From positions 1-64,000 of the forward strand of contig JAHLWP010000014.1 of NCBI GenBank assembly GCA_019057865.1: DNA of 64,000 bases, given 5' to 3'. This DNA comes from Promethearchaeota archaeon (GTDB lineage Archaea; Asgardarchaeota; Lokiarchaeia; Sigyniarchaeales; SOKP01). This document shows positions 1,981 to 62,700 of the stretch, one piece after another. The first letter of the stretch is position 1; the number at the start of each line of letters is the position of its first letter. The notes beneath the pieces were generated by a model. It saw only the letters and a list, made by a program, of their open reading frames with translations, searched no databases and had not been told where the DNA came from. The position numbers were made by a program, and so were the translations under genes.

Positions 1981-2054
1981 ATAAAAAATTACTTTTATTC
2001 CTTAATCCCTTTATTTTTTTTTAGCACTTTTAAAGTACTTCTCTTTTCTTCAAA

Positions 2055-2273
2055 GGCTAATATGTTCGATTTGCCAAACTTGTCTAAATCGTCTTTGCTA
2101 AATTTTAAATTATATTCAGCACGTTCGAAAGCGTAGCTAAAATTTTCTTTCCATTATATCGGGGGCAACGGAAATCTGTCATTTTTCAATTAACGATCGC
2201 ATTATTTATAAATAATAGTATCTTAATATTAAAACGATATCTTTAAGAAAATTAAATATAGTGGTGTAAATCA
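2055..2273 (+). repeat. Duplicated non-coding leader, copy 1
   Basis: Colinear and highly similar to 3964-4179 (ggctaatatgttcgatttgccaaac...gtggtgtaaatca). Confidence 0.9.
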
Positions 2274-3350
2274 ATGCAGAAATCAAAAAAAAAATTTAAA
2301 TCAAATAAATTAAGGATCTTGCTGATTATTGTACTTATTTCAATACTTATCGTAATTCCAAATTTGTTAATAAGTATACAAAGAGATAGCGAAATTCCCA
2401 TTGAAGAGAAGAATCTTAACGAGATTATTAATACACGCCCGCCCCAAGAATCTTCTGTCTACTACGAAGACACGACAGGACGTGCACTTAGCGTTTACGT
2501 GAGCGGAGATTACGCCTACGTGGCGGATGAAGGTTCGGGCTTGGCGGTCATCGACATTTCCGACCCGACGAACCCGGGAACGCCCGTTTACGAAAACACG
2601 ACCGGACGGGCATATTACGTTTACGTGAGCGGAGATTACGCCTATGTGGCGGATGATGATTCGGGCTTGGCGGTAATTGACATTTCCGACCCGACAAACC
2701 CGGGAACGCCCGTCTACGAAGACACGACCGGATCTGCTTATGGTGTTTACGTGAGCGGAGATTACGCCTATGTGGCAGATTATGATTCCGGTTTGGCGGT
2801 CATCGATATTTCCGAGCCTATAGACCCGGGAACGCCCGTCTACGAAGACACGACCGGATATGCTTATGGCGTTTACGTGAGCGGAGATTACGCCTATGTG
2901 GCGGATTGGACTTCGGGCTTGGCGGTCATTCAAGTACGAAAGAGGGTTGATAATGAAGCCCCGATAATATCAAACGCTCCGAGCGATTTCAATGTGGAAG
3001 CGGGATATACAGGGCAGGGTATTTCTTGGACGGCAACTGATGCAAATCCAGACACTTATACGATCGAACTGCTCGGGACGGGAATAGTTGCAGGACCTAC
3101 TGTCTGGACATCTGGCGTAGCAATTACATATAACATCCCGGACGGCTTTTCTCCTGGTGTTTATACGTATAACATAACTTTTACAGACGAAAGTGGCAAT
3201 TCTATCTCGAACACAGTTACGGTAACTATTAAATCAATCCCTGGAGGAGCACTTCCTTTCGAATTAATTATTATAGCTTCGGTTATTGGTGGAGGAGCAG
3301 TAATAGGCGTTGCAGTCGTAATATTACTAAGAAGAAAGAGGAAAGAATAA
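2274..3350 (+). CDS. Membrane-anchored LVIVD-repeat protein with four 42-aa blades, a beta-rich domain and a C-terminal TM
   Basis: N-terminal hydrophobic anchor; repeats VYVSGDYAYVAD..SGLAVIDISDP; TM plus RRKRKE tail. Confidence 0.9.
   Translation: MQKSKKKFKSNKLRILLIIVLISILIVIPNLLISIQRDSEIPIEEKNLNEIINTRPPQESSVYYEDTTGRALSVYVSGDYAYVADEGSGLAVIDISDPTNPGTPVYENTTGRAYYVYVSGDYAYVADDDSGLAVIDISDPTNPGTPVYEDTTGSAYGVYVSGDYAYVADYDSGLAVIDISEPIDPGTPVYEDTTGYAYGVYVSGDYAYVADWTSGLAVIQVRKRVDNEAPIISNAPSDFNVEAGYTGQGISWTATDANPDTYTIELLGTGIVAGPTVWTSGVAITYNIPDGFSPGVYTYNITFTDESGNSISNTVTVTIKSIPGGALPFELIIIASVIGGGAVIGVAVVILLRRKRKE
2463..2930 (+). repeat. Intragenic 126-bp GC-rich tandem repeat, about 4 units
   Basis: Units start at 2463, 2589, 2715, 2841. 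Confidence 0.95.
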
Positions 3351-3376
3351 ACAAAACTAAAATCCTATAATTTTAT

Positions 3377-3775
3377 CTAACATTTTTTTTTATCGTATAT
3401 TTCTTTTGCGTTTAGAACTATATCTTTATATTCTTCGTTTGGTTCTCCGTTTTCTAAACGAATTTGACTAGTTTCATAAAAATCGTGAACCATTTCAACG
3501 ATATCGCTTAATTTCTTTAAATAATCTTCGAAATTTTTGTCGCACCCCTTTCTTGGAATGGTTATTACTCTTCTCTATACTATTTTGATAATCCCTCTTT
3601 CATTATTACTATTTTTAAAAGAAGATGTAAGAACTATTGGATAAACTAAGTCAGTTTTTCCTTTAAGGTCTCTATGATTTGTATGCATGACGAGAGCTAA
3701 TCTGTTTACATCGATGGACATTTTATCGAAACTGTTCACAGAAAAATTGAACACATGATTAACACTGAGACACAT
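3377..3775 (-). pseudogene. Hypothetical gene remnant with an in-frame TAG
   Basis: ORF 3575-3775 continues in frame past TAG as RRVITIPRKGCDKNFEDYLKKLSDIVEMVHDFYE...DKKKC*. Confidence 0.45.
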
Positions 3776-3963
3776 ATTATATACTGAGATTTACTAGAGT
3801 TATATTCCCTAATTTTTGAGATGTAAAAGAGTATAGTGATTATAAATAAAATTAAGGTTAGAACGAAATAAATCTCTAAAGAAAACATTTAATGCTTATT
3901 ATAATAATACTTTTTTAAAATACACTAATCGTTTAAGTGTCCGGACCTAAAACTAATCTAAAT

Positions 3964-4179
3964 GGCTAATATGTTCGATTTGCCAAACTTTTCTAAATCG
4001 GCTTGACTAAATTTAAAATTATATTCAGCACGTTCGAAAGTATCGTTATATTTTTCTTTCCATTATACCGGGGGCAACGGAGATCTGTCGTTTTCAATTA
4101 CAGATCACATTCTTTAAAAGTAATAGTATCTTAATATTAAAACGATATCTTTAAAAAAATTAAAGAGTGGTGTAAATCA
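3964..4179 (+). repeat. Duplicated non-coding leader, copy 2
   Basis: Paralog of 2055-2273. Confidence 0.9.
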
Positions 4180-4822
4180 ATGCAGAAATCAAAAAAGAAA
4201 TCAAAAAAAAATAAAGATCTTGTTGATTATTCTACTTGTTTCAATGTTTATCGTAATTCCAAATTTGTTAATAAGTATACAGAGAGATAGCGAAATTCCC
4301 ATTGACGAGAAGAAGCCTAACGAGATTATTAATACACGCCCTCCCCAAGAATCTTCTGTTTACTACGAAGACACGATAGGATATGCATATAGTGTTTACG
4401 TGAGCGGAGATTACGCCTATGTGGCGTATGATTCTTCCGGCTTGGCGGTCACCGACATTTCCGACCCGACAAACCCGGGAACGCCCGTCTACGCTGACAC
4501 GATCGGATCTGCACATAATGTTTACGTGAGTGGAGATTACGCCTACGTGGCGGATGGTCCTTCCGGCTTGGCGGTCATCGATGTTTCCGACCCGACAAAC
4601 CCGGGAACGCCCGTCTACGAAAACACGACTGGAAGGGCAATTAGCGTTTACGTGAGCGGGGTTTACGCCTATGTGGCAAATGGTTATGAGGGCTTGGCGA
4701 TCATCGACATTTCCATCCCTATAGCAATTCCATTTGGTAATTCTTTCTTGATATTCATTGGATTTAGCGTAATTTGCTTAATTTTTACCAAAAAACGCCA
4801 GATCGTTCGTGAATCCAGATAA
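4180..4822 (+). CDS. Second LVIVD-repeat protein (3 blades, IPFG+TM tail); homologous start frameshifted at an A9 tract
   Basis: ATG 4180 (MQKSKK) matches 2274; A9 at 4203-4211 puts it out of frame and A8 would restore it; TTG 4220 is an alternative start; repeat units at 4364, 4490, 4616. Confidence 0.8.
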
Positions 4823-4848
4823 TAAATCAAAAATCCAACAAATTAACA

Positions 4849-4885
4849 TTAACACCTTTAGGTGTTAAAGAAATTTTTTTTCTTT
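4849..4885 (+). terminator. Hairpin plus T-tract after the second LVIVD gene
   Basis: ttaacacc-ttta-ggtgttaa (4849-4868) followed by T runs. Confidence 0.5.
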
Positions 4886-4899
4886 TACTTCTTCTCTTA

Positions 4900-4919
4900 T
4901 TATTTAGTCAAGTACTGAT
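4900..4919 (-). repeat. Right arm of perfect 20-bp inverted repeat
   Basis: ttatttagtcaagtactgat. Confidence 0.9.
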
Positions 4920-21673: not shown

Positions 21674-24600
21674 ATGAAATCTGTAAAACCAGAAAATTCT
21701 GAAGAAAAGATTAAAAAAATAACAGAATTCCTTACAAAATTATTTAGATTTTGCTTTTTCCTAATAATTGCACCTTTCGCTATTTCTTTAGCTGGATTTG
21801 GGATCTTGGTACAATTTCCTTGGGCTTCATATATAGCGTTTACTATTTCTGTAATAATTTTTACGTTTGCTTTCCTCTTTTTTTATAAAAGTTTTGACAA
21901 ATATCGAAATAACCCTTTCTTTTATAATAAATCCAATAACCCAATTGCCAGAGTACATGTCATATTTTTAATATCTATATTATCTTATGTTGTAACCCCA
22001 ATTTTCGATCTCATTACGCCCAAACATTGGTCGTTTATATATCTTCCGTTGATTTCTTTTTCTCTTTTATATAATATTGTGTATTATTACTACTACTTTC
22101 AGCCTATCGATTTTTTCAATATAGGCGAAGGAGAGTTTAAGCATGCTATTAGTTTAAAATTGATGTTAAAACAACCCTATAATTTTGTTATTGTTATTAA
22201 TTATCTTATTCAAATATTATATCTATCTTTTATAACTTCTTCTGACTTTGCTTGGCTTTTTGGGCTTATTAATAATCTAATTTTTTATTTGATTACTTTT
22301 GCGTCTGTAAGTAAGCAACAGAATGAAATCAAAAAATCTATCGAAGATAACAAACCATTCTTAAAAAATCTAACAAAATTTAAGCGTAAATTTGTTACAT
22401 CTTTAGCTAGCTTTATGTTTGTTCTTTTGATTCAAATGCCTTTTATATCATTGGTATTTTTAATTCAGAGAGGTCAATTTTCAGTTAATATTCTTATAGA
22501 TGATGCGTTTCTAAGTTTTTTATTCCTCTTACTCTTTCTTAAAACTGTACTTTATATCTACTTACATTATGAATTTTTATTTGAGTTATACAAAAACCCC
22601 GAAACATCAAGGAATTCTGAAGAAGAAAATAAAGATACAAAAGTCAAATATCAAAAGTTAAGTTCGATATTAACAGGAATTTTAATATTATTAATAACAT
22701 TATACACTTTTCTTATAGAGTTACCTTATATTACGCTAATTATTCTTCCATTTTTTTTTATTTTTACTCATTATGAGCATAAATCAAATTATTCCTTTAG
22801 AAAATATGATAATTTTATAATTTTATTATACAGTCTTGCATTTTTAGCTTCTATCTCTTTTGGAATCTTACCTTCTATTTCAGATCTTATTAATTTCAAT
22901 ATTCAATTAATTGTTTTTTTCATTTCCTTTTATTTCATGTTAGAATTATTTAGAAGGGTTAATTATTTTAAAAAAGGAAATATCCTAATAACTCAAAATA
23001 TTCTTGCAATAATCGCATTTTTCTTGATCATTCTTAACTATGTTTATATTTCCACAGATCCTTATCTGACGCTTGTTTCTAACGTTTTTATAATTCTAAT
23101 TCTTTTCTTTGTTGTTTTATTACTTTCATTTTACAGATTATATGCAATTTTCTTCAAAGAAAAATACTCAAAAACATTCAAAATATGCGTACTAATGAAT
23201 TTATTTCTGATAGAATTAATTATCTTTATTCTCATCAATTTTAATACCTACTTTACAGTGAGTTTTAACCTTTTCATTAAGCTTTTAGTCATTTCTACTA
23301 TTTTATTTCCGTTAATATTCATGCTTTTTGTGTTATTGAATTATTTAATTGGCATGATTAACTTAAAGACGCTTTTAGCATCAATTTATTATTCTTTTTG
23401 GTCATTAATAGTAATTATTTTTCTATCTATACTCATTACATTCTTCCCAAACTATATTATGATGATTTTCAATTTCCTGCTTTTATTAATTCTTATTAAT
23501 TTCAGTTTGAAATTTGGGGTAAAAATAGCAAAAGTAAAAGAAGAAACCTATAAAAAGGCTATGAGTGTTTTATCTTATCCAATATTTTTGTTACTTTTAG
23601 CTTTAATTTTCTCTATATTTTATGCTTCCTTTCAATTTCTACTTTTAATCGACAACATAATTCTTTCATCATTTCTTACCTTAATTATTACATGTGTCTT
23701 AATAAATTGTTTTTCTAAAATAGAATTCTTATTTACAAGAGCTATATCCATCAATGTTAATTTGTTAACCCTATTACTCAGCTCAATCTATTTATTTTAC
23801 TATTTAAGGTTGTTATCTTTGATTTTAGGAACTTTTTATCTATTTACATTTCCCGTAATAATTACGTGCTCATTTTTTTATCTTCCAATAATGTATTCAT
23901 TAAAGAAAAATATAGCGCCAAAATTAACAAAAACAGCATTAGTATATAATGGCATATTTTTATCTGTATTTCTGGCCCTCATTCCAACATTCATTTATTT
24001 AGAATTAATTAATCTAGGATATAGAGTTAATATTATCACAGTATTTAATGTTATCAATTTTACTCTTTATATTCTCTTTGGAATTCTACTCATTTACCGC
24101 TTTAAAATAAGAGAAAATCTTAAGAGAATTATTTTAATATCTGCACTTTTAATTGCTTTTCTTTTAACTGGAACAACTGTATTTTTTTACTTTTTTATAA
24201 TATTTTATGAGACTTCATTTAGATTTTTATTACCATTAATGATAGCATCCTCTTACTTCTTCATCCCTACTACTTACTCTTATAGAAAAAGACTTATGAA
24301 GGAATCTATAGGGAAGAAAATCTTAACTTATAACATCTTACTATTATCTGGGTTGATATTATGTATTCCAACATTCATCTATCTAGAATTAATTAATCTA
24401 GGATTACCTGTTGATATTATCACAGTTATTACTGATATCAATTTTACTCTTTATACTCTCTTTGGAATTTTAATCATTATAAACTTTAAAGTAAGAGAAA
24501 ATCTTAAAATATTTATTTTAAAATTGGAAGTTTTAATTGCCACCCTTTTAACTGGAACAACAGTATTCTTTTACTTTTTTATAATTTTCTATGAGACTTC

Positions 24601-27600
24601 ATTTAGATTTTTGTTACCATTAATGCTAGCATCCTCTTACTTCTTCATACCTAGTACTTACTCTTATAGAAAAAGACTTTTGAAAGAGTCTATTGGGAAG
24701 AAAATCTTAACCTATAACACTTTGTTATTATCTGGATTGATATTATGTATTCCAACATTCATTTATTTAGAATTAATTAATCTAGGATTACCTGTGAACG
24801 TTATCACACTTATCACAGATGTCAATTTTACTCTTTATACTCTCTTTGGAATTTTAATTATTATAAACTTCAAAATAAGAGAAAATCTTAAAAGATTTAT
24901 TTTAAAATTGGAAGTTTTAGTTGCTACCCTTTTAACTGGGACGACTGTATTTTTTTACTTTTTTATAGTTTTCTATGACACCCTATTCAGATTTTTGTTA
25001 CCATTAATGCTAGCATCCATATACTTCTTCATACCTAGTACTTACTCTTATAGAAAAGGACTTCTAAAGGAATCTATAGGGAAAAAAAGCTTAATTTATA
25101 ATAGTGTATTTTTATCTGGAATAATTTTATGCGTTCCAACTCCAATGGGTTTACAAATAGAACGAATGGGTTTAAGCGTTGATTACATTCTCATCTTAAT
25201 TTTTACAATCTTCATTTTATTTGTCATTTTAAGGATTTTTGATTCAATGGCTGAAAATTTTAAATTAAAAGAGATCTACATCAAAGCTTTAAGATTTCTT
25301 CAGATCTTTGTTTGGTTAATCTTCTCCTTTTTTATATCACTTGAGATTATACTATTAGGTTTAACACAATCTCTTCTTACAATAAGACTTTTAATAATAA
25401 GCTGTTCTATTTTAACTTTCTTTATTATTAATACTTATACTTTAAAATTACTTCAACTCTATTCAAAAGAATTAACTTTCCTTAGATATCTAAAAGATAC
25501 TTTATACTATGGTCTAATTTTTTCTCCATCATTAGTGATTTTTTCTTTAATACAGTTAAGCGAAGTTTTAAAATATTTACCTACAGAAATGCAACCTTTC
25601 AATCTGTTTTGGTATCTCGGTTTCTTTTTCCTGATAGTATTTATATCATTTAAGTTTAGCAGTGCTTTAATAAAAGCCGAATTTCCTAAATTACAGAGGA
25701 ATATTGAATTTGTATCGTGGCTAATTGCTAAAGTTTGTATCTGCTTTTTTATATCCTTTATTCTTACCTACTTTTTATCATTAGTTCAGTTTTCAGTTTT
25801 TAATCTAACAATTACTTTCATTCTAATTGTTTCACTATTATCCCCTATTACTTTTTCCTATTTCGAGAAATTTGAGTTAGTTTCTGAAGAATATCGATTC
25901 TTTATCAAAAGATTCACTGTAATTCTATTTATTACTGACATTTTAAGTTTTATATCGTATTCATGGCTTTTTAATAATCCTATTTATGGTCAATTTAATT
26001 TGATTCTTACAGCTACATTAACATTAAGTCTTACTGGATTAGCCTATGTTTTATTATTTTATAAATCACGATTACCATTAAGAAGAATTTCTTTCTTTAT
26101 AGTTTTACCATGCATTGTTATCAGCTTTCCTATTTTCTTATATTTCTTTATTAGTGTGTCTCTTTCCATACCATTTGGAGATATGTTTCCATTAATCATA
26201 GCTATTGATGTTGGAATTTTTCTTTTCTATTTATCTATTGGAATATATCAGTGGAAATTTTCTTGGGCAATTTGGAGGACAGGATGGTATGCCTGGTTTA
26301 TTGTACCTTTTGTTAATTTTTATCTATTATATAGAAGTCTTAAAGGTGTCGATATAGCTACAAGTGCTATAGATTTTTTTGGATATGAAATAAATGGATC
26401 ATTTCTTCTCACTACTGTGATCTTTTTTCTATTTTTCTTACCTATTGCATATACAAAAATTAAGATATATTTCTATCAAATTTTACTCATTATTTGGGGC
26501 ATAAACCTAGCTTTACTTTATTGGATTAGTCAAAATCTATTTCTGACTAATTTCTTATTAAGATATTTGGTATTTGCTCTTTTTGCAGCCGTTTTATTAG
26601 CGCCCCTGTTCTATAAATTGAAATTTTGGAAAACAATCTCGTTCGTATGGCTAATCCTTATAGCAATTAATGCAAATTTTTTAATTTTCTTTCTATTATC
26701 ATTAAAAATCCCTTTAGACATTGCGATTTCAATTGATATTTTCGCCATTGCCATGTTGGTTTTAATTTTATCATTTTTTCCTGCTTTTAAATCAATAAAA
26801 AATCTCGTTATCATTAGTTCTTACATAACAGCGATAATTGGGATTTTTCTAACAATTTATTTTATATTGTTTCATATAATCTTAGATCCAATTTTTGCTT
26901 TAAATATAACTTTTATATTTGTTGGATTTAGTTTATTTTCTTCTAAATATATTAAACCAATTAAACGATTAACAGACATGATATCTTCTTGGATTCTAAT
27001 ATTTGGTATTTCATGGTTAACTTTTAATTCATTTAATTTGCTGCCTAATCTACTATTTTTTGCTATATTTCTAGCAATTGCTGTGTGGGGCGGTTCTTTT
27101 TATGTTTTTAATTACTATAAAATGAAAATTCATATCCACAAAATAATTCCCTTTTCAGCGGTATCATTTGGTATTTCTTCTGCTGTTTCTTCCTTTCTGG
27201 TCATATTTCTGCCAGAAAATCCATTTTTTATAGCTAGTATTTTTGTATTGATTTCTCTGTTATTCGTTTACTATCCGTTAGGCAATTATAGATTATATTT
27301 ATGGTATTTGTTTCCCTTACCGTTGACATTTATTTTTCAGGAATTATTCTTAATGATTGATTTTATTCAATCTTCCCTCTTTTTAGCAATTTTAATATTT
27401 TTGGTTGATTATTTGATAATGTACCAACTAATAATGAATATTTCAAATTCTCACTATGAAGAAGCTAAAATAAAAGGAGAGAATACTTTATCGTATTTTT
27501 TCAAAGATAAGAATCAAATTAAATTACAAAATCTAATCTGCTTTATAATAAATTCAATTTATTTTTCAATACTCATATCAGTTATTAGTGCAAATATATT

Positions 27601-30600
27601 TAAACAAGTATTATTCAGAGATTTAATATTAGTTTATCAGATTCTTAATATTCTGATCATTCTACCCTTTCTTCTATTATTTTGCATAAAATATATTATA
27701 AAATCAGAACTTGAATTAAAAGTTAAAAATATATTAATTTATATTCACAAAATAAGTTATTTTATATATTTAATTGTCCCATTGGCAACAGCTTTTAATC
27801 TTTTCTTATTAATGCTTAAATTAGATGTTACTCTAACAAATTCTCTTTATTTATTCTTAATAATCTTAAGTGGAATGTTATTTACTGAATTATTTATTTT
27901 TGATAATCGATATTTTTATTACTTATTCGTTGCTGCTCGGAATAAGTTAATGTTTTGGTCATGGGTGATATTCGGTAATTTCTCTTGCATTTTCCTTTAT
28001 TTCTTCCATTTAGATGAATATATTTTAATATTATCATTCTCTCTGGTAAATTTAATTGATTCTTACTTCATTTCATATTTTAATATCAAAAACGAAAATT
28101 TAGCATCAATAATACACTTAATACTAATCTATAATTCATTTATATGGGTTTCATTTTACATTTCTTCTCTAATATCTAACGGAATAGTATTAATTCTTGA
28201 AGAAGTGCGTGGGATACCCTCACTTTTATTATTCATTCAAAATTCAATATTATTTCTATTTATATTTAGTTTTTTCATAAGAAAAGCTAAAGAAAAGATA
28301 AAAATTACTATAAAACTCCTATTAATAGCCGGTTTTCATATAATTTTTGCCATAAATTGGATTGTTATATTTTCAGTATTCAATATTTTAGATCTTTTCA
28401 CAATTTATTTTACCATTTTAATTGAAACATGCATATCATTTATTACAGTCAAATTAATGGATAGTTTAGTTAAAAAAGAAAAGTTTCCTAACTTTCTAAC
28501 GAAATCTAATTCTTTAATTGTATTTTTATTATATCTTGAAACAAGTTTAATGGTTTATGGACTTGCAATTGAATTTTTAGGATTTTTCGAAAGTATTTCT
28601 CTGTCTCAATTGACTTTATTTATTTTAACTTCATTTGATATATATTTTCTAAAAAAAATAAGAGAAACTTATGGAAGATTAATTCACACAATTAGTTATT
28701 TTATACTCTCCTTATCAACTCTTTTAATCCTAAACCAGTTTGTAAAATTTAATCCCCTTCTAATTAGTATAGAAGTCTTTATCTTTTTAATTATGCAATT
28801 TTATACAAATCATTCACTTTTTCTTTCTTTATCTCACTTTTATCCTGATAAAGCAGAAACCTTTAAACGCCATAAACTTAAAACACATCATTCTTTAGGG
28901 ATATTTTTATACGTTTCTGTACTATTAATTATAATTCAATCTCTTCTTATAATCGGAGTTGAAATTTCTTTACTCATTCTTATAACAAGTCTTTTTCTCC
29001 ACGGATTAATGATTCTTGATGCTTATCAATTAAAACTTTTAGGAAAGCTTTCAATATACCTTAAAGGAATTTCTTGGCTTTTATTTAAAATATTTTTTGC
29101 CATAAATTGGATTGTTATATTTTCAGTATTCAATATTTTAAATCTTTTCACAATTTATTTTCTCATTTTAATTGAAACATGTTTAACATTTATTACAATC
29201 AAATATTTGGATGGGTTATTTAAAGAAGGAAAATTTCCTAACTTTCTAACGAAATCTAATTCTTTAATTATCTTTTTATTATATCTTGAGACAAGTGTAA
29301 TGATTTATGGACTTGCAATTGAATTTTTAGGATTTTTCGAAAGTATTTTTATATCTCAATTAACTTTATTTATTTTAACTTCATTTGATATCTATTTTCT
29401 AAAAAAAATAAGAGAAAGTTATGGAAGACTAGTTCACACAATTAGTTATTTTATACTCTCCTTAACAACTCTTTTAATCTTAAACCAATTTGTAAAAATT
29501 AATCCCCTTCTAATGAGTATAGAAGTCTTTATCTTTTTAATTATGCAATTTTATACAAATCATTCACTTTTTCTTTCTTTATCTCACTTTTATCCTGATA
29601 AAGCAGAAACCTTTAAACGCCATAAACTTAAAACACATCATTCTTTAGGGATATTTTTATACGTTTCTGTACTATTAATTATAATTCAATCTCTTCTTAT
29701 AATCGGAGTTGAAATTTCTTTACTCATTCTTATAACAAGTCTTTTTCTCCACGGATTAATGATTCTTGATGCTTATCAATTAAAACTTTTAGGAAAGCTT
29801 TCCATATACCTTAAAGGAATTTCTTGGCTATTATTTATCTTCTTTTCAAATTTTTATTTATTATCGATTTATCTAACTTATTTATCTGACATTTTGATTT
29901 CTTCTATTCCGCCTTTAATTTTGCTCTTTATCATAGAACTTTTCTATTTAATTAAATTGGTTGAATTTTTGCCGAAACTGAGCTCAAATAAAGATAAAAT
30001 TAGAAAAAGTTTGCTTCTTATATTATGTTTTGATTTTATAATTTGGCCTTTATTTTTCTTAGGATTCAATTTAATTCTTAATATTACTCTATTCCTAATT
30101 TCATTTTATGTTCTAGTCATAATCTCTTATATTGATGAAAGAATATCTCATATTTTTGAAGAGAAATTCTTAAAAAAGCTTAGATTTACTACTTCCTTCA
30201 TAATTCTAATAATATTAATAGTTGATATTTTTCTTTGGTTACATCTCTCATTTAATCTTTCTCTCCCACTAAATACCTGTATTTCCCTTTTAATCTTTTC
30301 AATATTTAACATTGGATTACTTAAGCCATTTAAAAGAGCTCCTAATTTTTCCTTTGCTTATGGGGGGTTTATCTCTTTATTAATAAGTTTGATAATTTAT
30401 TTTGCAACCTCTCAAACGTTAACAAGTATTGTTCTCTTTCCTATAATGCTTACTTTTTATCTCTTTATATTTATGCTTGAAGTTTTAAAGACATTTTTTA
30501 ATAAACTTTTAGACCTTTTAATACATTTTTTCAGTCGATTAAAAAAATTTATAAAATATATTGGTATCAAGATTTTCAATTTTTTAAAATTACATTATAA

Positions 30601-31048
30601 AATTATCTGGGTCTCATTTAGTTTATTTCTTGCAGTTTCAATTGGCATTCTTTTATCTCCATTGCAACTAAATTATTTAAATTGGTATCATTCTGTTTTT
30701 GTTATGCTTGGACTTTTTGGTCTACTTTCTTTATTTTTACCTTCTAAAAAAACAGAAGATGTTGATTTGATGTTCAAACATAGAATGAGAAAACTAATTA
30801 CCTCATGGATAACAGTGATCGCAATATTATTCCTGTTTATTCCTGATCCTGTTTGGTACATAATTGCTTTTTGGATATCTATTTGGATTTTGGGAATAAT
30901 TCTATTACCTTATGTTATTTATAAAGAAAGAAAAGATAATATTTCAGTCAAGTGGAGATTTTATACACTAATTATTATCCTAACAGCTATTATTCTCGTA
31001 GGAATACCTGCTATATTTAGTATCTTAATAGAATTTAATGTAATTTGA
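21674..31048 (+). CDS. Giant 3124-aa polytopic membrane protein of unknown function
   Basis: Uninterrupted ORF of successive hydrophobic helices with short Lys-rich loops. Confidence 0.88.
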   Translation: MKSVKPENSEEKIKKITEFLTKLFRFCFFLIIAPFAISLAGFGILVQFPWASYIAFTISVIIFTFAFLFFYKSFDKYRNNPFFYNKSNNPIARVHVIFLISILSYVVTPIFDLITPKHWSFIYLPLISFSLLYNIVYYYYYFQPIDFFNIGEGEFKHAISLKLMLKQPYNFVIVINYLIQILYLSFITSSDFAWLFGLINNLIFYLITFASVSKQQNEIKKSIEDNKPFLKNLTKFKRKFVTSLASFMFVLLIQMPFISLVFLIQRGQFSVNILIDDAFLSFLFLLLFLKTVLYIYLHYEFLFELYKNPETSRNSEEENKDTKVKYQKLSSILTGILILLITLYTFLIELPYITLIILPFFFIFTHYEHKSNYSFRKYDNFIILLYSLAFLASISFGILPSISDLINFNIQLIVFFISFYFMLELFRRVNYFKKGNILITQNILAIIAFFLIILNYVYISTDPYLTLVSNVFIILILFFVVLLLSFYRLYAIFFKEKYSKTFKICVLMNLFLIELIIFILINFNTYFTVSFNLFIKLLVISTILFPLIFMLFVLLNYLIGMINLKTLLASIYYSFWSLIVIIFLSILITFFPNYIMMIFNFLLLLILINFSLKFGVKIAKVKEETYKKAMSVLSYPIFLLLLALIFSIFYASFQFLLLIDNIILSSFLTLIITCVLINCFSKIEFLFTRAISINVNLLTLLLSSIYLFYYLRLLSLILGTFYLFTFPVIITCSFFYLPIMYSLKKNIAPKLTKTALVYNGIFLSVFLALIPTFIYLELINLGYRVNIITVFNVINFTLYILFGILLIYRFKIRENLKRIILISALLIAFLLTGTTVFFYFFIIFYETSFRFLLPLMIASSYFFIPTTYSYRKRLMKESIGKKILTYNILLLSGLILCIPTFIYLELINLGLPVDIITVITDINFTLYTLFGILIIINFKVRENLKIFILKLEVLIATLLTGTTVFFYFFIIFYETSFRFLLPLMLASSYFFIPSTYSYRKRLLKESIGKKILTYNTLLLSGLILCIPTFIYLELINLGLPVNVITLITDVNFTLYTLFGILIIINFKIRENLKRFILKLEVLVATLLTGTTVFFYFFIVFYDTLFRFLLPLMLASIYFFIPSTYSYRKGLLKESIGKKSLIYNSVFLSGIILCVPTPMGLQIERMGLSVDYILILIFTIFILFVILRIFDSMAENFKLKEIYIKALRFLQIFVWLIFSFFISLEIILLGLTQSLLTIRLLIISCSILTFFIINTYTLKLLQLYSKELTFLRYLKDTLYYGLIFSPSLVIFSLIQLSEVLKYLPTEMQPFNLFWYLGFFFLIVFISFKFSSALIKAEFPKLQRNIEFVSWLIAKVCICFFISFILTYFLSLVQFSVFNLTITFILIVSLLSPITFSYFEKFELVSEEYRFFIKRFTVILFITDILSFISYSWLFNNPIYGQFNLILTATLTLSLTGLAYVLLFYKSRLPLRRISFFIVLPCIVISFPIFLYFFISVSLSIPFGDMFPLIIAIDVGIFLFYLSIGIYQWKFSWAIWRTGWYAWFIVPFVNFYLLYRSLKGVDIATSAIDFFGYEINGSFLLTTVIFFLFFLPIAYTKIKIYFYQILLIIWGINLALLYWISQNLFLTNFLLRYLVFALFAAVLLAPLFYKLKFWKTISFVWLILIAINANFLIFFLLSLKIPLDIAISIDIFAIAMLVLILSFFPAFKSIKNLVIISSYITAIIGIFLTIYFILFHIILDPIFALNITFIFVGFSLFSSKYIKPIKRLTDMISSWILIFGISWLTFNSFNLLPNLLFFAIFLAIAVWGGSFYVFNYYKMKIHIHKIIPFSAVSFGISSAVSSFLVIFLPENPFFIASIFVLISLLFVYYPLGNYRLYLWYLFPLPLTFIFQELFLMIDFIQSSLFLAILIFLVDYLIMYQLIMNISNSHYEEAKIKGENTLSYFFKDKNQIKLQNLICFIINSIYFSILISVISANIFKQVLFRDLILVYQILNILIILPFLLLFCIKYIIKSELELKVKNILIYIHKISYFIYLIVPLATAFNLFLLMLKLDVTLTNSLYLFLIILSGMLFTELFIFDNRYFYYLFVAARNKLMFWSWVIFGNFSCIFLYFFHLDEYILILSFSLVNLIDSYFISYFNIKNENLASIIHLILIYNSFIWVSFYISSLISNGIVLILEEVRGIPSLLLFIQNSILFLFIFSFFIRKAKEKIKITIKLLLIAGFHIIFAINWIVIFSVFNILDLFTIYFTILIETCISFITVKLMDSLVKKEKFPNFLTKSNSLIVFLLYLETSLMVYGLAIEFLGFFESISLSQLTLFILTSFDIYFLKKIRETYGRLIHTISYFILSLSTLLILNQFVKFNPLLISIEVFIFLIMQFYTNHSLFLSLSHFYPDKAETFKRHKLKTHHSLGIFLYVSVLLIIIQSLLIIGVEISLLILITSLFLHGLMILDAYQLKLLGKLSIYLKGISWLLFKIFFAINWIVIFSVFNILNLFTIYFLILIETCLTFITIKYLDGLFKEGKFPNFLTKSNSLIIFLLYLETSVMIYGLAIEFLGFFESIFISQLTLFILTSFDIYFLKKIRESYGRLVHTISYFILSLTTLLILNQFVKINPLLMSIEVFIFLIMQFYTNHSLFLSLSHFYPDKAETFKRHKLKTHHSLGIFLYVSVLLIIIQSLLIIGVEISLLILITSLFLHGLMILDAYQLKLLGKLSIYLKGISWLLFIFFSNFYLLSIYLTYLSDILISSIPPLILLFIIELFYLIKLVEFLPKLSSNKDKIRKSLLLILCFDFIIWPLFFLGFNLILNITLFLISFYVLVIISYIDERISHIFEEKFLKKLRFTTSFIILIILIVDIFLWLHLSFNLSLPLNTCISLLIFSIFNIGLLKPFKRAPNFSFAYGGFISLLISLIIYFATSQTLTSIVLFPIMLTFYLFIFMLEVLKTFFNKLLDLLIHFFSRLKKFIKYIGIKIFNFLKLHYKIIWVSFSLFLAVSIGILLSPLQLNYLNWYHSVFVMLGLFGLLSLFLPSKKTEDVDLMFKHRMRKLITSWITVIAILFLFIPDPVWYIIAFWISIWILGIILLPYVIYKERKDNISVKWRFYTLIIILTAIILVGIPAIFSILIEFNVI
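23981..25140 (+). repeat. Intragenic 384-bp tandem repeat x3
   Basis: attccaacattcat at 23981, 24365, 24749; gttccaac at 25133. Confidence 0.92.
28344..29833 (+). repeat. Intragenic 750-bp tandem duplication
   Basis: cataaattggattg at 28351 and 29101; distal parts nearly identical. Confidence 0.92.
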
Positions 31049-52388: not shown

Positions 52389-55300
52389 TTGATTTTTATG
52401 GATGAAGATAATAATGAAGAGTTCGATGAGAACGGATTTGATCCCACAAAAGAAGCTTTTTTTACTGATTTAATGGAAATGGAAGACGAACTCGCCTCAG
52501 AAGCATATGAATTAGTTGAACATGCTTTAAATTTGATTGCTTCAAAATATTATGATGATGGCATTGAAACTTTACGGCAAGCAATTGGATTATATAGTCA
52601 AATTAATAGAGAAGAAGAAGTTAAGGCAATTAATGAAAAAATATCTGAAATTTATATCCTAAAAGAACGAGAATTTCGAGATATTGAAGCTAAACCTGAA
52701 GAAGAAATTGCTGAATTAGAAATATCGAAATTTACAGAAGAATTTGCGGTTTCTGATATATCAAAAGAAATTGAAAAAGAACAAGTTGAAGTGGATAGAT
52801 CGGGTGAAGCGGAAAGCGTAATATCAGAAGCACAAGAGTTAGTAAAAATGGAAGATTTTGAAGGTGCTCTTGATAAATATGATGAAGCTATTAACATATT
52901 TGAAGAAATGAATATACCAGATCAAGTCGAGAGAGTGTATAAATTAATTGAAGATTGTTATAATAAGAAGGCAGAATTTCTGCGAAGAATTAAAAAAGAA
53001 GTGGTTGTAGAAGAAACAAAAACTGAAGTAGAAGAAGTTCCTAAAATGGAGGAAATACAAAAAGAAGCAAAGATTACGTCTTATCTCGAGTCTAAAAAGC
53101 GTGAGGAGGAACTCTCAACTCGGGCTTATGATCTACTAGGACAAGGTGCTGAACTAGCTAAAAGTCGCCAATATGATAAAGCCTTAGAATTATTTGAAGA
53201 AGGGGCTAATTTATTTAATGAATTAAACTGGAATTATGAAGTAAAGAAAGTTCGAGCTACTATTACCCAATTAGAAGAAGAAAAAGATTTATATTTAAAA
53301 GAGCTTGATAGAATTAAATTAGAAAGAGAAAAGGAATTTAAATTAAAAGTAAAACAAGAAGTACTTTTAGAAAAGCATGTTAAAGAAATAGAGAAACAAA
53401 AAGCAATTACAAAGATGGAAAAAGTAAAAGAACTTGAATTGCAAAAAATGGAAGATGAATATTTTCAAGTCCAAATTGCTAATATGGTTAATGAAGCAGA
53501 TAAGATAGCAAGAGAATATGAATTAGACATGAAAAAAGCAATAAAGGAAGGATCTATTATTGAAACGTCCTCTTATCATGAAGTTATTCAATTATATGAG
53601 AAAGTTCGAAATTTATTAATTGAAAAGGGTTGGAAAGACCAAGTACCAATTTACACTAATCAAATTAATATATATTATGAAAAGTTAGAAAAATATAACA
53701 AATTAAAGCAAATTGAAGCACAAAAATTAGAAAAACAAAAAGCTATTGAAGAAATGCATAAAATTAAAGAAGAGGACACACAAATAGCTTATGATGCTGA
53801 AAAAATGAAAATACTTGAGGAAACAAAAAAGAAAGAAATGGAAGTCCAAATTTTCATAAAACAAATCGATGAAATGGTTAATAGCGTAGAGAGATTGGCA
53901 AGAGAATATGAAGTAGCCTTAAGGAAGGGTCAATTCGAAAGAAGTTGTCCTTATCCTAAAATCATTAACACTTATGAGAAAATAAGAAATATGTTATTAG
54001 AAAGAGGATTGAAAGATGACGCTGCTATTTATACAACTCAAATTCAAGCATACAAGGAAAAGTTAGTAAAAGATAAGAGATTACGCGAAATAGAGGCTCA
54101 AAAAATTGAAAAACAAAAAGAAATCGAAGAAATGCATAAGGTTGGAAAAGAAGTTAAACCTATAAAGATCGAAAAAGGTAAAATGGTTGAAGAACAGAAA
54201 TTTGAAGAATTTATAACAGAAATGGTCAATAAAGCAGAAAAATTAGCCAGAGATTATGAAATTGCATTGAAAAAAGCTAAAAATAAGGTGGAAATAATAG
54301 AAAATAATCCATACCTCCAAGTTATTGAAATATACAGAGAGATTAGAGAAAAGCTATACGCTAGAGGTTGGAAGGACCAGGCAGAGATATATACTAATCA
54401 AATCAAAATTTATCAAGAAAAATTAGAAAAAGATAAAAAATTACTTGAGATTGAATTCCAGAAATTAGAAAAGGAGAAAGAATTAGAGGAATTTTATAAA
54501 GTTCAAAAAATAGAAAAAGAAAGACCTCCAACAGAAAAAGATTTAAAGGCTATTGAAAAGAAAAAGGAAGAAGAGGAATTTGAGAAACATTTAGCCGATA
54601 TGGTTAATAAAGCAGAAAGACTTGCTCGAGACTTCGAAATTGCTATGAAAAAAGCTATGAGGGATGGAAAAATAATTGAAACGACCCCTTATCCTGAAGT
54701 TATTGATATTTATAAACAGATTAGGGAAAATGTTTATGCAAGAGGATGGAGAGAGCAAGCAGAGATATATGCCAATCAAATAAAAATATATCAAGAAAAA
54801 TTGAATAAAGTTGAGAAATTACGTGAAATTGAAGCTAAAAAAATAGAAAAACGGAAAGAAATCGAGGAAATGCATAAAGTTGAAACAAAAATTAAATCAA
54901 TTAAACCCAAAAAAATAAAAAAAGAAGATCGAAAGGAAGACCTGCTGCTAGATAAAGCGATGAAACTAATTGATAAAGCAGAAAAAATGGCAAGAAACTA
55001 TGAAATAAAATTGAAAGTTGATATTTTAAGTTATGATAGTCCCTATGAAACTGTTATATCTTATTATGATGAGGCCAGAAAAATATTCCATAAAATTGGT
55101 TGGAAAGATGAAGCCCGTCGATTAATAAATACAATTAAATTTTATACAGAGAAAAAGGAAAAGGATGAAAAATTAAGAATTTTTGAGCAAAGGAAGTTAA
55201 AAGAGGCAGAGTTAGAAGTAGTGGCTGTTAAACCAGAATCTGAAGAAGAAATACTTGTTAGACATAAAAAGATAATAGAATATGAAAAGAAAAAACAAGA

Positions 55301-56915
55301 AAAAACCCATAACGCTGATGAAATATTTCAAATGATTAATGATGCTGAAAGGATGGCACAGGAATATGAAGTAAATATAAAAGAAGGGATTCTTAAGCAC
55401 GAATGCCCTTATAGTAAGATCATTGAAGTCTACCGAGATGCGAAAAAGGGCTTTGAAAATATAGGATGGACTGAAGAAGCAAGTAAGTTAGTAAGTTCAA
55501 TTAATTTTTATAAGGAAAAATTGGAAAAAGATATAAAATTACGAGCTCTAGAAACTTCAAAAGTCAGAAGAAGAGAGGAAGAGATATTGCAACAACAAAA
55601 ATTAATTGAAAAATCTCGATTAGAACAACTTAGATTACAAAAACAAAAACACAAATCTCTATTATTACAAAGAACTCAAGAATCCGAATTTGAAAAAGAA
55701 AAGAATAAAGCTTTTGATTTAATGGATCGTGCAAAAGCAGAATTAAAACAAAATAATTTTGAAAAAGCAATTGAATTATACAAGGAAAGTGAAAAGATAT
55801 TTTCTAATATAAAATGGAAAGAAGGTATTACCATGGTTCGGGGCACTATAACACTAATTAAAAGTAAGAAAGAAAAGTTTGAAGTCAAATTAAAAACAAT
55901 CAAAGAAAGGGAAGTTAAACAGTTGGAGTTAGAAGAAAAATTAGAAGAAAAATTAGCCGAAGCTCAAGAGTTAAGGAAATTTCACCAAAAACAAAAGAAA
56001 AAAGAATTTCTGAAAATCCAAATGCAAAAAGAATGGGAAAAAGAGATTTCAGAAGAAGCATATCAAATTTTAGAACAAGGAACAGCATTATTAGAGCGTA
56101 AAAAGTTTGATGATGCTTATGAGAAATATATTAAAGCCAGAGAACTGTTTAATAAAATATCCTGGCAAAGGGAAGTTTCTCGTATTAACAACGAACTTTT
56201 ATTCAAATTGCAAAGAGAGCGGAAGAAATCTGAGATTTTAAAGGACATAGGTAAGAAAAAAGCTGAAGAAAAAGAGAAAATAGAACAAATGATGATTGAA
56301 GCACTAAAAGAAAGGAAAGAAATTGAAAAAAGAAAGAAAAAGGAGAAATTTAAAGAACTAGAAAAAGAGAGGATTGAAGATATTTTTAAAGAAGTAGAGA
56401 GAGCAAAAAAACTCATTGAAGGTTTCAATTATAATCAAGCTGTTCAAATACTTAAGAAAGAGATAAAAAGGATGAAGAAGAGAAAAAAACTTGAAGAGGC
56501 TTCAGAAATCGAAGAATTAATCAATAGTGTAATACTCCAATCGCAGGTCCCTTTAATCACCTTAGAAGAACTTGATGATAATGAAAACTTAAAAAAATTC
56601 AAGTTAGCATACGAAGCATTAGACAGAGCACAACTAGCCATATCAGATAATCGGTATATGAAGACAGTTTCAGAATTACGTGAAGCTCTCTATAATTTAA
56701 AAGAAACCAAGATTGGAGCAAAATATCTCAATGATATAAAAGCCAAAATAAAAGAATTTGAAGAAAAACTTGGAAAAAAACCTCCTGAAGCTAAACCTGA
56801 AAAGGAAGCAGTAATTTTAGAAAGTGAAATGGAAGACTTAAAAGCAAGAATTGCAAAAAGAAGAGAAGAAAGGAAGAAAAAAGTCCTTGAATTATTAAAA
56901 AAGGGAAAAGAATAG
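52389..56915 (+). CDS. 1508-aa E/K-rich helical repeat protein
   Basis: TPR-like units plus six copies of A..AR.YE...Y..VI..Y...GW...A..Y..QI..Y.EK. Confidence 0.85.
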   Translation: MIFMDEDNNEEFDENGFDPTKEAFFTDLMEMEDELASEAYELVEHALNLIASKYYDDGIETLRQAIGLYSQINREEEVKAINEKISEIYILKEREFRDIEAKPEEEIAELEISKFTEEFAVSDISKEIEKEQVEVDRSGEAESVISEAQELVKMEDFEGALDKYDEAINIFEEMNIPDQVERVYKLIEDCYNKKAEFLRRIKKEVVVEETKTEVEEVPKMEEIQKEAKITSYLESKKREEELSTRAYDLLGQGAELAKSRQYDKALELFEEGANLFNELNWNYEVKKVRATITQLEEEKDLYLKELDRIKLEREKEFKLKVKQEVLLEKHVKEIEKQKAITKMEKVKELELQKMEDEYFQVQIANMVNEADKIAREYELDMKKAIKEGSIIETSSYHEVIQLYEKVRNLLIEKGWKDQVPIYTNQINIYYEKLEKYNKLKQIEAQKLEKQKAIEEMHKIKEEDTQIAYDAEKMKILEETKKKEMEVQIFIKQIDEMVNSVERLAREYEVALRKGQFERSCPYPKIINTYEKIRNMLLERGLKDDAAIYTTQIQAYKEKLVKDKRLREIEAQKIEKQKEIEEMHKVGKEVKPIKIEKGKMVEEQKFEEFITEMVNKAEKLARDYEIALKKAKNKVEIIENNPYLQVIEIYREIREKLYARGWKDQAEIYTNQIKIYQEKLEKDKKLLEIEFQKLEKEKELEEFYKVQKIEKERPPTEKDLKAIEKKKEEEEFEKHLADMVNKAERLARDFEIAMKKAMRDGKIIETTPYPEVIDIYKQIRENVYARGWREQAEIYANQIKIYQEKLNKVEKLREIEAKKIEKRKEIEEMHKVETKIKSIKPKKIKKEDRKEDLLLDKAMKLIDKAEKMARNYEIKLKVDILSYDSPYETVISYYDEARKIFHKIGWKDEARRLINTIKFYTEKKEKDEKLRIFEQRKLKEAELEVVAVKPESEEEILVRHKKIIEYEKKKQEKTHNADEIFQMINDAERMAQEYEVNIKEGILKHECPYSKIIEVYRDAKKGFENIGWTEEASKLVSSINFYKEKLEKDIKLRALETSKVRRREEEILQQQKLIEKSRLEQLRLQKQKHKSLLLQRTQESEFEKEKNKAFDLMDRAKAELKQNNFEKAIELYKESEKIFSNIKWKEGITMVRGTITLIKSKKEKFEVKLKTIKEREVKQLELEEKLEEKLAEAQELRKFHQKQKKKEFLKIQMQKEWEKEISEEAYQILEQGTALLERKKFDDAYEKYIKARELFNKISWQREVSRINNELLFKLQRERKKSEILKDIGKKKAEEKEKIEQMMIEALKERKEIEKRKKKEKFKELEKERIEDIFKEVERAKKLIEGFNYNQAVQILKKEIKRMKKRKKLEEASEIEELINSVILQSQVPLITLEELDDNENLKKFKLAYEALDRAQLAISDNRYMKTVSELREALYNLKETKIGAKYLNDIKAKIKEFEEKLGKKPPEAKPEKEAVILESEMEDLKARIAKRREERKKKVLELLKKGKE

Positions 56916-59770: not shown

Positions 59771-62700
59771 ATGATAAATAAAAATAATAAAAGAAAGAAG
59801 GATGAGAAAATGAGTAATTTTATTCCAAAACAATATCAAAACGATGCTAAAATTATTGGAGAGCAAGAAAATTCTCATGATTATTTAGATATTTGGGATG
59901 TGAATCCTTCATATAAGGATATTAATTCGAGATTTTCCATACTTAAAGGAATATCATTAACAATTATTCTTTTTTTTTTAGCTATTTTAACATATCAATT
60001 AACTACTAATATTTATATTTCAATCGGATTAACAATTTTTACATTGCTCTTTTTCATATTTTGTTTCTCTGATAATTTCTTTAATCTCAGAAATTTATAC
60101 TATTATCTATTCCATAAATTTATTTCTATAAATCCTTTTGAGAATTTATCTTTTTGCACAATTAGACAGGAACCTACTTTTCTTTTAATTTTAAACAAAA
60201 AGGATGCCATATCTACAGCAATGCGAATATTCAAAATTGAAACACTTCCAGAAAATGTTTATCCCACGTTGAATCAATTTCTCAAGGCATTAAATAAAGG
60301 TCAAATATCATATACATACCAAGTGGTTCAAAGTCCGTATTTAGATTTCTCTGAACCATCCTCTGAAAATAAATTTCAAGTGGAATCAATTAGATCTCAA
60401 AATTTAAGTTCTATTGATTCATTACATACCTCAATTTATTTTTGTGTGTATTATAATATAAATGGGATTTTATCTAGCAATAAAATAGATAAACTAATAG
60501 AAATTGTTAATGATCTTTCTAATGAGCTCAAATCAAATTTTAGTGCTAACTTTCACCATACAAAAATCTCATTATTAGGTGGAATTGATTTAATAAATGC
60601 AATAAGAACATTTTTCTGTAAATCATCCATACAACCTGCCGATAAAGAGGCAGATCTTTTTATAGCTAAAAGAAATTTGCCAAAAGTATTATTCAAAACA
60701 GGTTTTGTGTCTTTTCTTATAATATCTCTCTCATATTTATTATTAAGTCTAATTTTTCCATTAGGATTTATAATACTCATTAATTTCCTCTTGGAATTGC
60801 TTATAATTTGTATATGGTGGAGAGAAATTCTTTTTTATTTCTCAAAATCGCGTCTATCTCGTAATTTGGAATTAACTCAAATAAATCCATTTACAGATGT
60901 TGAGTTTTATCGATTAAATAAATACAATGATCTAATTTTTACTTATATTGACAACCAATTACTATTGGCTTCAAAAATATTTAACCTCAAATTTGCCGCA
61001 CAGCCAACTTTAACTTATTTTGATAAATTTATTAGGGGAATCGATAAATATAAGATTATTTTCAATTACAATTTACAAGTTACTCCAATATCTGCTAATC
61101 TCTTTTCAAAAGAATGTCTTAAGTTGTTGAATGATAAAACGAAAGAAAGCCTCGAAGGAATACTATATATTACTTTAGATAAAACTTCTTCAAAAAAAGT
61201 TAAGCATCCGGAAGTTGAATTTGAAAAATGGTTAGATATGAGATCTGGTGTTTGGAAGACAATGTTAACTGTGTCAACCTCTTCCTATTTATTTACAAAA
61301 GACTTAACATTTAAGAATTTCATTGAGTTAGAAAAAGAATTATCCACAAATGCAAAAATTTTGAAAAGAACATTTGAAGATAATTTCTTAAATTTTAAAC
61401 TTGTTGGATTAAAAAACCAACTCTTAATTTCAGGATTTTTAAGTGAATGTCTTAAAAATCATTCCTTTAGATTGAATGGAACTCATTTAAATTATGTATA
61501 CTTCCAAGGTAAAAGTCTAATAGAGCTTGCGAAGATAGTTAATGAATTTAAAAAAGGAATAGATACGAGAATTGCTGCTGAATTTAATACTCCTTTACAA
61601 TTAAAAAATTTTATAACAATTGGAAATACAATCAATACGGAGTTCTTAGATGAAGAGGTCCCTTTTGGGTTGACTTTTGACCAATTGCAACAATTACTTA
61701 TAACAAATGGTCTTTCTTACAATCGAGAACATACAAAAATGAAAATTGTGTCTGAGCTTGTCAAAGCAAATAAATCCTGTATAGTTTTTGATTACTCAGG
61801 AAAATGGTCAAAATTAATGAATTTTTTCAAAGACTCTCAATATAATGGAAATATTTTGTATTTCAAGTTGGGAAGTTCATTTAGCATCGATCTAAAGCAC
61901 TCGGGTATGAAATATGATAAAAATAATATTGATTATTTAAATTTATTCTTTGATACGTTTGCTTTAGCCTTTAAAGCAGAAAAAAGATATGTCGATCTTC
62001 TAAAAGACTCTTTTTTAAGACAGGATGAGTTTGATGTATCATCAATTTCCTTAGATCTTGAAATGAAAAATAAATGGGAAAGAGATTACAAAACTAATAA
62101 TTTAATAGCAATATTTAGGGATTTTAGAAATCAGAGTCAAATTTTTTCTAATTTAACACTTGATCATGAGGATGAGATTAATCCAATTGACTTTTTGAGA
62201 AATGATAAGTCAATTATAGTCGATCTTTCAATTTTAAAAGACTTAGAGCAAAAAACTTTTGTCACTTTTATAATTATTTCAAAACTAATTCATTACATCC
62301 AAAATTCTACAGATTATTATAAAAAAGTCATTTTCATTCCTAATATTGATATGTTTTTTGATTCCTTTTTTATTGATAATAACTATAATACCACAAATTA
62401 CGGAAAAGTCAGTAAATTTTTAGAACCTTTTCTTGAATGCGGATTTGGATTAATATGCTCAGCAAATCAGATAAGATATCTTCACCCTCATGTTTTCAGT
62501 TTTTTACATAATATCATAACTTTTAGAGCAAATGATACACGAGATATAGCCGTATTGAAAAATCAAATGAATTTACAAGAATTACAGGGTACTGGATATT
62601 ATAGCTCTAAAAGGAATAATACTTATCAAATTAATTATTTAATGAATATGCGTGAAAATGAAGTAATAATTAAAAGATCAGATATTTATCAACCTTTTCC

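Follow-up and report, generated by a model that had tools for sequence, protein, structure and literature searches.

The first 64 kb of contig C22 in the metagenome bin of a Loki-type Asgard archaeon of the Promethearchaeota (hereafter the window, 64,000 nucleotides in full) encode two proteins with tandem LVIVD repeats (PF08309), the products of gene 1 and gene 2, in which a nearly constant repeat scaffold is combined with a few hypervariable codons. In our assessment, these genes probably belong to a fast-evolving family of Asgard surface proteins, namely LVIVD propellers with variable loops under selection and recombining repeats that diversify without a mutator and have spread horizontally. 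The host genome assembly comprises 4.26 Mb in 87 contigs, with a GC content of 0.291 and an estimated completeness of 99.7%.

Tandem Repeats Finder detects two arrays with a period of 126 (positions 2462-2929 and 4363-4714), and the seven 126-bp units, all in register, encode LVIVD repeats of 42 residues each. The matches to PF08309 are highly significant, with scores of 145.7 bits for gene 1 and 105.7 bits for gene 2 against a cut-off of 20.2, and even single units of the window are recognized (E-values from 1e-13 to 6e-6). The variability is concentrated in codons 9, 11, 12, 25 and 26 of the unit, that is, at offsets of +24, +30, +33, +72 and +75 from the unit start; among the seven units, residue identity is 84% in the scaffold and 17% at these five positions. 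The contrast between a near-constant scaffold and five strongly variable codons, which had been described in an initial annotation of this DNA, was thus recovered, as were the exact residue series at the five positions, the preponderance of T or C at the ends of the variable codons (31 of 35) and the GC excess of the arrays over the flanks (0.52-0.54 versus 0.20-0.30). The description of the scaffold as nearly invariant even at synonymous sites was overstated: between 18% and 20% of the codons for the same residue differ, and nucleotide diversity (pi) at four-fold degenerate sites is 0.24. The hypervariable pattern is not due to chance.

A scan of one genome per species yielded 297 related stretches, and a DNA profile constructed from the seven units identified units of nearly the same sequence at ten other Loki loci, with 5, 7, 9, 14 or up to 19 units each, 14 being the most common number; among homologues, the number of units spans 3 to 19. 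In 124 units from 11 loci, the residue entropy at codons 9, 11, 25 and 26 is 3.4, 3.2, 3.1 and 3.5 bits, respectively, with 16-17 residue types, compared to 1.8 bits at codon 12 and less than 1.4 bits at most scaffold codons (maximum anywhere, 2.2). Variation at the same positions extends to Hermod-, Thor- and Wukongarchaeota and to many bacterial phyla, with a scaffold variant specific to each lineage; in the Loki relatives, scaffold identity between units is 0.79-0.90, and the closest scaffolds from outside the Asgard archaea, those of a Myxococcales bin and a deltaproteobacterial bin, show 81% scaffold identity. The distribution is patchy. Of 201 genomes drawn from the phylum, 14 contain units recognizable at the DNA level, and all ten congeners in that draw lack them; close protein relatives were found in roughly 9 of 30 congeners. 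Among the neighbors of 12 family loci, no gene recurs except for the family itself and spurious antisense frames. Two related genomes contain an in-frame stop inside or near a unit (L025:3455-3580 and G210:C1:2327144-2327911), which suggests that these copies are decaying.

To assess selection on individual codons, the 54 closest units were compared by the Nei-Gojobori method. The proportions of synonymous (pS) and nonsynonymous (pN) differences in the scaffold are 0.37 and 0.10, respectively, and pN reaches 0.57-0.68 at codons 9, 11, 25 and 26, so that the elevated replacement diversity anticipated in the initial annotation is indeed observed at these four codons. Positive selection limited to a few codons per repeat is thereby detected, as a lower bound. 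At the variable codons, pi is 0.64-0.68 at the first two bases, which is near saturation, and 0.25-0.26 at the third base, similar to the values for four-fold degenerate sites of the scaffold (0.24-0.26); for the four most variable codons, the values are 0.68 and 0.26, and the bootstrap interval for the difference is 0.37-0.46 and excludes zero. The third bases of the variable codons are T in 64% of the cases and, in the four-fold codon families other than Gly, NNT is used 115 times and NNA five times, compared to about equal usage of both in the genome; the third base of the variable codons has simply not changed. An alternative rate estimate from the closest pairs was set aside because the choice of the closest among 7626 pairs of short, star-like sequences is biased; in that comparison, units separated by 3-5 changes in the scaffold have already diverged at 59% of the variable bases.

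The five positions might be regarded as unconstrained loop residues that drift neutrally, or as part of a local hotspot of mutation, in either case without selection favoring change; the location of these positions in loops and the variability of the corresponding positions in all other LVIVD lineages examined are compatible with this explanation. Drift or a hotspot, however, would alter all three bases alike, whereas the observed diversity is 0.68 at bases 1-2 and 0.26 at base 3, and the replacement diversity of the variable codons exceeds the synonymous diversity of the scaffold. Selection for residue change therefore fits these data, and we consider neutral change improbable. The contrast between the codon bases, taken by itself, would fit equally well a diversity-generating retroelement (DGR) with an AAY template (Y, T or C), that is, rewriting of the five codons from a template copy by a DGR or another form of templated mutagenesis. 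A quiet third base next to saturated first and second bases is what AAY template codons are expected to produce, T or C is the last base of 79% of the codons at the four most variable sites, Lys never occurs at these sites (0 of 496), and Arg is encoded there mostly by CGT, in a genome that prefers AGA. Nevertheless, templated mutagenesis appears extremely improbable given the other lines of evidence. The only reverse transcriptase of the genome, a 1026-residue protein with a central reverse transcriptase domain (G000:C11:9019-12099; L022:259-3339), is encoded outside the window, on a different contig, and has its best matches among the defense-type UG5-nitrilase, UG34 and UG25/DRT models of PADLOC; the respective domain, PF00078, is missing in four of five relatives whose genomes harbor the family, one of the four being a chromosome in a single contig that contains 14 units, and the fifth has one uncharacterized match. 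Searches of the whole genome with BLAST and the DNA profile of the unit recovered the seven coding units and nothing else; all DNA-level copies of the unit reside in genes 1 and 2, and a template copy is therefore absent. Scaffold adenines at the first and second codon bases are no more variable than other bases (pi 0.115, against 0.120 and 0.131 for C and G), approximately 21% of the variable codons end in a purine, which yields Glu, Trp, Gln and Met, and, as indicated above, no neighboring gene accompanies the family members. Finally, the array-containing locus L024 and the metagenome contig L127, which represent relatives rather than the population of the window itself, show nine mismatches over 8216 bases (0.11%) and share 69 of their 70 variable codons, so that these codons are stably inherited over short times. 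The initial judgment that this is not a classic DGR therefore holds with respect to the reverse transcriptase, template, adenine, neighbor and strain comparisons alike, and the same observations lend no support to the unknown templated mechanism that had been entertained as an option. Evidently, NNY-biased variable codons in repeats are insufficient to call a DGR.

The location of the variable codons in the fold was assessed by structural modeling. The four-blade protein encoded by gene 1, modeled with AlphaFold2 without an alignment, gave an unusable prediction (predicted local distance difference test score, pLDDT, of 46). In contrast, for a seven-unit relative that shares the leader and the C-terminus of gene 2 (L031:6001-7125), an alignment of 41 sequences yielded a model with a mean pLDDT of 89 and values of 94-98 in the blades. 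This model contains four strands per unit, as assigned by DSSP, and its best Foldseek matches are WD40 propellers, including the seven-bladed TLE1 and beta-TrCP, with template modeling (TM) scores of 0.6-0.73; a search for solved structures that match by sequence found none. In the model, the loop that follows strand 1 ends at codon 9, strand 2 begins with codons 11 and 12, and the turn linking strand 3 to strand 4 consists of codons 25 and 26. Given the beta-meander topology, both variable loops would open on one face of the propeller, where, by analogy, they appear to be the counterparts of the D-A and B-C loops, which make up the ligand face in WD40 domains. With both loops on the same face, a ring of seven blades would present about 35 variable residues as a single binding surface, and these residues are rich in Tyr, Gly, Ser, Arg and Asp. 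The mapping of the variable sites on a predicted propeller, which had been proposed at the outset, thus favors a common face as far as strand order is concerned, the basis being the topology of the model of a relative.

The high GC content of the repeats calls for a separate explanation. The scaffold has a GC content at third codon positions (GC3) of 0.51, compared to 0.28 for the variable codons and 0.21 for the other genes of the window. Low-GC bacteria encode similar units with a GC content of 0.37-0.42; hence, high GC is not dictated by the residues themselves. At the DNA level, the consensus unit shares 94-99% identity with those of seven other species. As a reference for divergence, PolB orthologues from four related genomes share 76-83% protein identity and differ in 46-51% of the codons for the same residue (the PolB orthologue of a related genome, L104, at G001:C67:21747-24149, contains one in-frame TAA). 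The corresponding cross-species differences are 19-30% for the units, 8-14% for the leader and 20-26% for the C-terminal domain; in the comparison with two of the genomes used for PolB, the values are 19-23%, about 10% and 20-26%, respectively, with a protein identity of only 58-84% in the non-repeat parts. Third-position changes from the consensus occur more often from GC to AT than in the opposite direction (0.28 versus 0.18 per site). The simplest reading of these sequence comparisons is that the GC-rich version spread horizontally in the recent past and is now decaying toward AT; horizontal spread is suggested by the atypical codons, the low synonymous divergence between species and the patchy occurrence. 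Alternatively, the uniform GC-rich scaffold could be kept by frequent GC-biased gene conversion within genomes rather than by recent horizontal spread, a scenario to which the near identity of the consensus unit across many species, the suitability of repeats as conversion substrates and the short, clustered differences between alleles, which resemble conversion tracts, lend some appeal. We regard this scenario as unlikely: the non-repeat parts, that is, the AT-rich leader, the Ig-like domain and the 3' flank, likewise show low synonymous divergence or 87-95% DNA identity, the family is patchily distributed within the genus, the excess of GC-to-AT changes runs in the opposite direction, and some Asgard lineages maintain the same residue scaffold at a GC3 of 0.12-0.31.

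Several comparisons point to exchange of repeat units. The family sequences P0016 and P0064 show 100% identity from halfway through the last unit onward, with all differences located before that point; six residues distinguish P0003 from P0004, five of which lie within a stretch of 22 residues; and the loci L120 and L134 are nearly identical over 1500 bases, followed by 23 differences in 190 bases inside the array. In 39 of the 46 pairs of units with identical loop-1 codons, loop 2 differs. These mosaics fit exchange of whole and half units, although single cases could be assembly chimeras. Within-population polymorphism at the gene 1 locus would be represented by one sequence, P0032 (274 amino acids, on a 5-kb contig from an assembly in ENA), in which the last 165 residues are identical to those of gene 1; it has two units instead of four, the second of which is a mosaic, and one extra substitution, and represents either an allele with a different number of repeats or a collapse of repeats during assembly. 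Since the genome is a metagenome bin, P0032 comes from a different assembly and additional LVIVD fragments are found at contig ends, the entire pattern, or the unit counts of four and three, might be attributed to collapsed or chimeric repeats. As an account of the pattern, this is very improbable: the same scaffold and variable codons recur across dozens of independently obtained assemblies, closed chromosomes among them, an assembler can tell every unit apart because the variable codons are less than 45 bases apart, and two independent assemblies agree on one 14-unit array. The true numbers of units may be higher than four and three; the existence of the variability is certain.

Several considerations weigh against our interpretation of these proteins as a selected and recombining propeller family. 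The estimate of selection treats repeat units as sequences, and recombination or gene conversion among the units can distort the counts; because the variable sites are saturated, the ratio of replacement to synonymous change is only a lower bound. The common face of the two loops is deduced from topology, not from coordinates. Four or three blades cannot each close a WD40-like ring, so that either the assembly may have lost units or proteins with few blades may pair up. The low synonymous divergence between species could stem in part from constraint or GC-biased conversion as opposed to transfer. Finally, the units of one gene resemble each other no more closely than they resemble those of the closest other species, so that ongoing homogenization within this gene is no more than a possibility.

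With these reservations, the selected-propeller interpretation can be spelled out as follows. The outer part of the proteins would be a WD40-like LVIVD beta-propeller of 42-residue blades, often 7 or 14 in the relatives, each blade combining a fixed four-strand scaffold with four to five varying positions in the loop that enters strand 2 and in the turn between strands 3 and 4. The data indicate that the variable codons change by ordinary point mutation fixed through positive selection, with no dedicated mutator involved, and in part also document duplication, loss and recombination of whole or half units between highly similar repeats. The GC-rich, codon-atypical DNA might derive from horizontal spread among Loki lineages, possibly from a bacterial source with a mid-range GC content, and the putative role of the proteins is recognition of, or adhesion to, partner cells, viruses or substrates. 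The initial proposal of a diversified receptor or adhesin shaped by recombination between repeats and selection is thus supported by the saturated replacement positions, the neutral-like third positions, the one-face topology and the mosaics. A more elaborate possibility, which we consider doubtful, is a horizontally exchanged repertoire of Asgard archaea and their bacterial neighbors for the recognition of syntrophic partners, kin or viruses, with on/off switching at the poly-A run in codons 4-8 and pairing of the four-blade and three-blade proteins into mixed seven-blade rings.

The features of the locus are listed in the table below. Genes 1 and 2 appear to originate from a tandem duplication of a gene together with its promoter region, given that the upstream region of approximately 220 bases is duplicated as well.

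Table. Features of the LVIVD repeat locus in the window
Feature	Position	Strand	Remarks
5' non-coding region of gene 1	2052..2273	+	Direct-repeat families D3 and D4; probable promoter and 5' leader (sequence reading)
Gene 1	2274..3350	+	358 aa; open reading frame and translation; PF08309 E = 2.3e-43, four stretches
Four 126-bp LVIVD units of gene 1	2457..2960	+	Unit starts 2457, 2583, 2709, 2835
C-terminal part of gene 1 outside the repeats, comprising the Ig-like domain and the membrane anchor	2931..3350	+	GC 0.43
Second copy of the upstream region, preceding gene 2	3961..4179	+	89-91% identical to 2052..2273
Gene 2	4180..4822	+	PF08309 E = 7.3e-31, three stretches; open frame from TTG at 4220
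A9 run in gene 2	4203..4211	+	A8 in the nearest relatives
Three 126-bp LVIVD units of gene 2	4358..4735	+	Unit starts 4358, 4484, 4610; third unit degenerate at its end
Gene 2 terminus (3') with about 100 bases of non-coding sequence past the stop	4723..4919	+	87-95% identical to family gene ends in other species

The gene 1 product starts with a Lys-rich segment and a hydrophobic signal or anchor, followed by four LVIVD blades, the last of which switches into the conserved array-end motif VIQVRKRV, an immunoglobulin (Ig)-like domain, a C-terminal membrane helix and a basic tail; the Ig-like region (residues 227-318) has a weak match to the Big_9 profile that falls under the cut-off of that profile. 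The product of gene 2, which has the same beginning (MQKSKK) and leader, contains three blades and, downstream of an IPFG motif, ends in a hydrophobic helix and a KKRQ tail, as in the relatives with 7 and 14 blades (L031 and L024). On the strength of the Lys-rich and hydrophobic N-terminal segment and the C-terminal hydrophobic helix with a basic tail, read from sequence and model, both proteins are predicted to be anchored in the membrane on the cell surface. The ATG of gene 2 at 4180 is out of frame with the body of the gene owing to an extra A in the conserved A8 run (codons 4-8). This could be a pseudogene, a sequencing slip or the off state of a phase-variable gene; among the 18 family starts examined, 17 are in frame, mostly with A8, and gene 2 is the only one that is not, so that poly-A phase variation was rejected as a family-wide habit. 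The identity of the gene 2 end to its counterparts in other species far exceeds the 73-76% seen for PolB.

An exact look-up of both gene products in a protein collection returned no match, JGI metagenomes contain no near-identical alleles of either gene (none above 91%), the searched viral contigs contain no relatives of the family, and the flanks of the window show no synteny with the related loci at the DNA level. Distant LVIVD proteins are encoded in the same genome, in a 1043-residue frame (G000:C17:4546-6312) and in fragments at contig ends (C13:11328-11420 and C55:2-94); the latter hint at further repeat genes broken by assembly. On the minus strand, an open frame of 188 amino acids (2367-2933) crosses the GC-rich repeats, and nine related loci contain similar antisense frames. 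Rather than a gene, this open frame almost certainly reflects the scarcity of stop codons in GC-rich DNA within an AT-rich genome. The window also contains very long open frames at 21674-31048 (3124 amino acids), 52389-56915 (1508 amino acids) and 59771-63658 (1295 amino acids).

The LVIVD genes share with DGR targets the NNY-biased codons and the surface exposure of the variable residues (predicted here) but lack a DGR-type reverse transcriptase, a template repeat, adenine specificity and strain-level hypervariation. LVIVD itself has been defined as a 42-residue repeat of archaeal and bacterial cell-surface proteins (Adindla 2004, PMC2447325), a description that says nothing of near-identical blades with selected variable loops; among the titles listed for papers that contain the string LVIVD, none concerns variable loops, and many of these papers use it as a cardiology abbreviation. 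Recently amplified, repetitive beta-propellers have been reported, with short sets of blades proposed to form oligomeric rings (PMC9218822; Afanasieva 2019, PMC6805158), and highly repetitive propellers are described as undergoing continual re-amplification and frequent disruption (Pereira and Lupas 2022, PMC9218822); the text of the latter study mentions neither LVIVD nor hypervariable positions, whereas the focus here is on selected loop codons. The NOD-like receptors (NLR), a group of signal transduction ATPases with numerous domains (STAND), were considered as well and set aside: the Pfam search of genes 1 and 2 detected no NACHT or NB-ARC NTPase domain, the only matches being those to LVIVD and the weak ones to Ig-like domains.

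As an evolutionary mode, the closest parallel is the HNWD/NWD family of the fungus Podospora anserina (het-d, het-e and het-r), whose WD40 repeats of about 42 residues show approximately 85% internal identity (Paoletti 2007 and Chevanne 2010, as summarized in PMC4986451). In the HNWD proteins, four positions per repeat, located on the interaction face, are under diversifying selection, the number of repeats is polymorphic, and repeats are exchanged within and between paralogues (PMC4986451); other fungal NLRs also contain highly conserved WD40, ANK or TPR repeats (PMC4986451). The LVIVD proteins resemble this family in the 42-residue length of the unit, the 84% scaffold identity, about four selected positions per repeat, the variation in unit number and the mosaics. 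The two families also differ: the HNWD proteins are intracellular NACHT/NB-ARC receptors of a eukaryote in which repeat-induced point mutation (RIP) adds mutations, whereas the LVIVD proteins are predicted to be extracellular and membrane-anchored, are found in archaea and bacteria, and are likely to have spread horizontally. Asgard archaea and their partner bacteria live in close contact, and this propeller family is a concrete candidate for a role in the recognition of cells or viruses. More generally, receptor diversity based on a fixed scaffold and selected loops, a mode best known from fungal immune receptors, appears to operate on extracellular proteins of prokaryotes without a mutator element.

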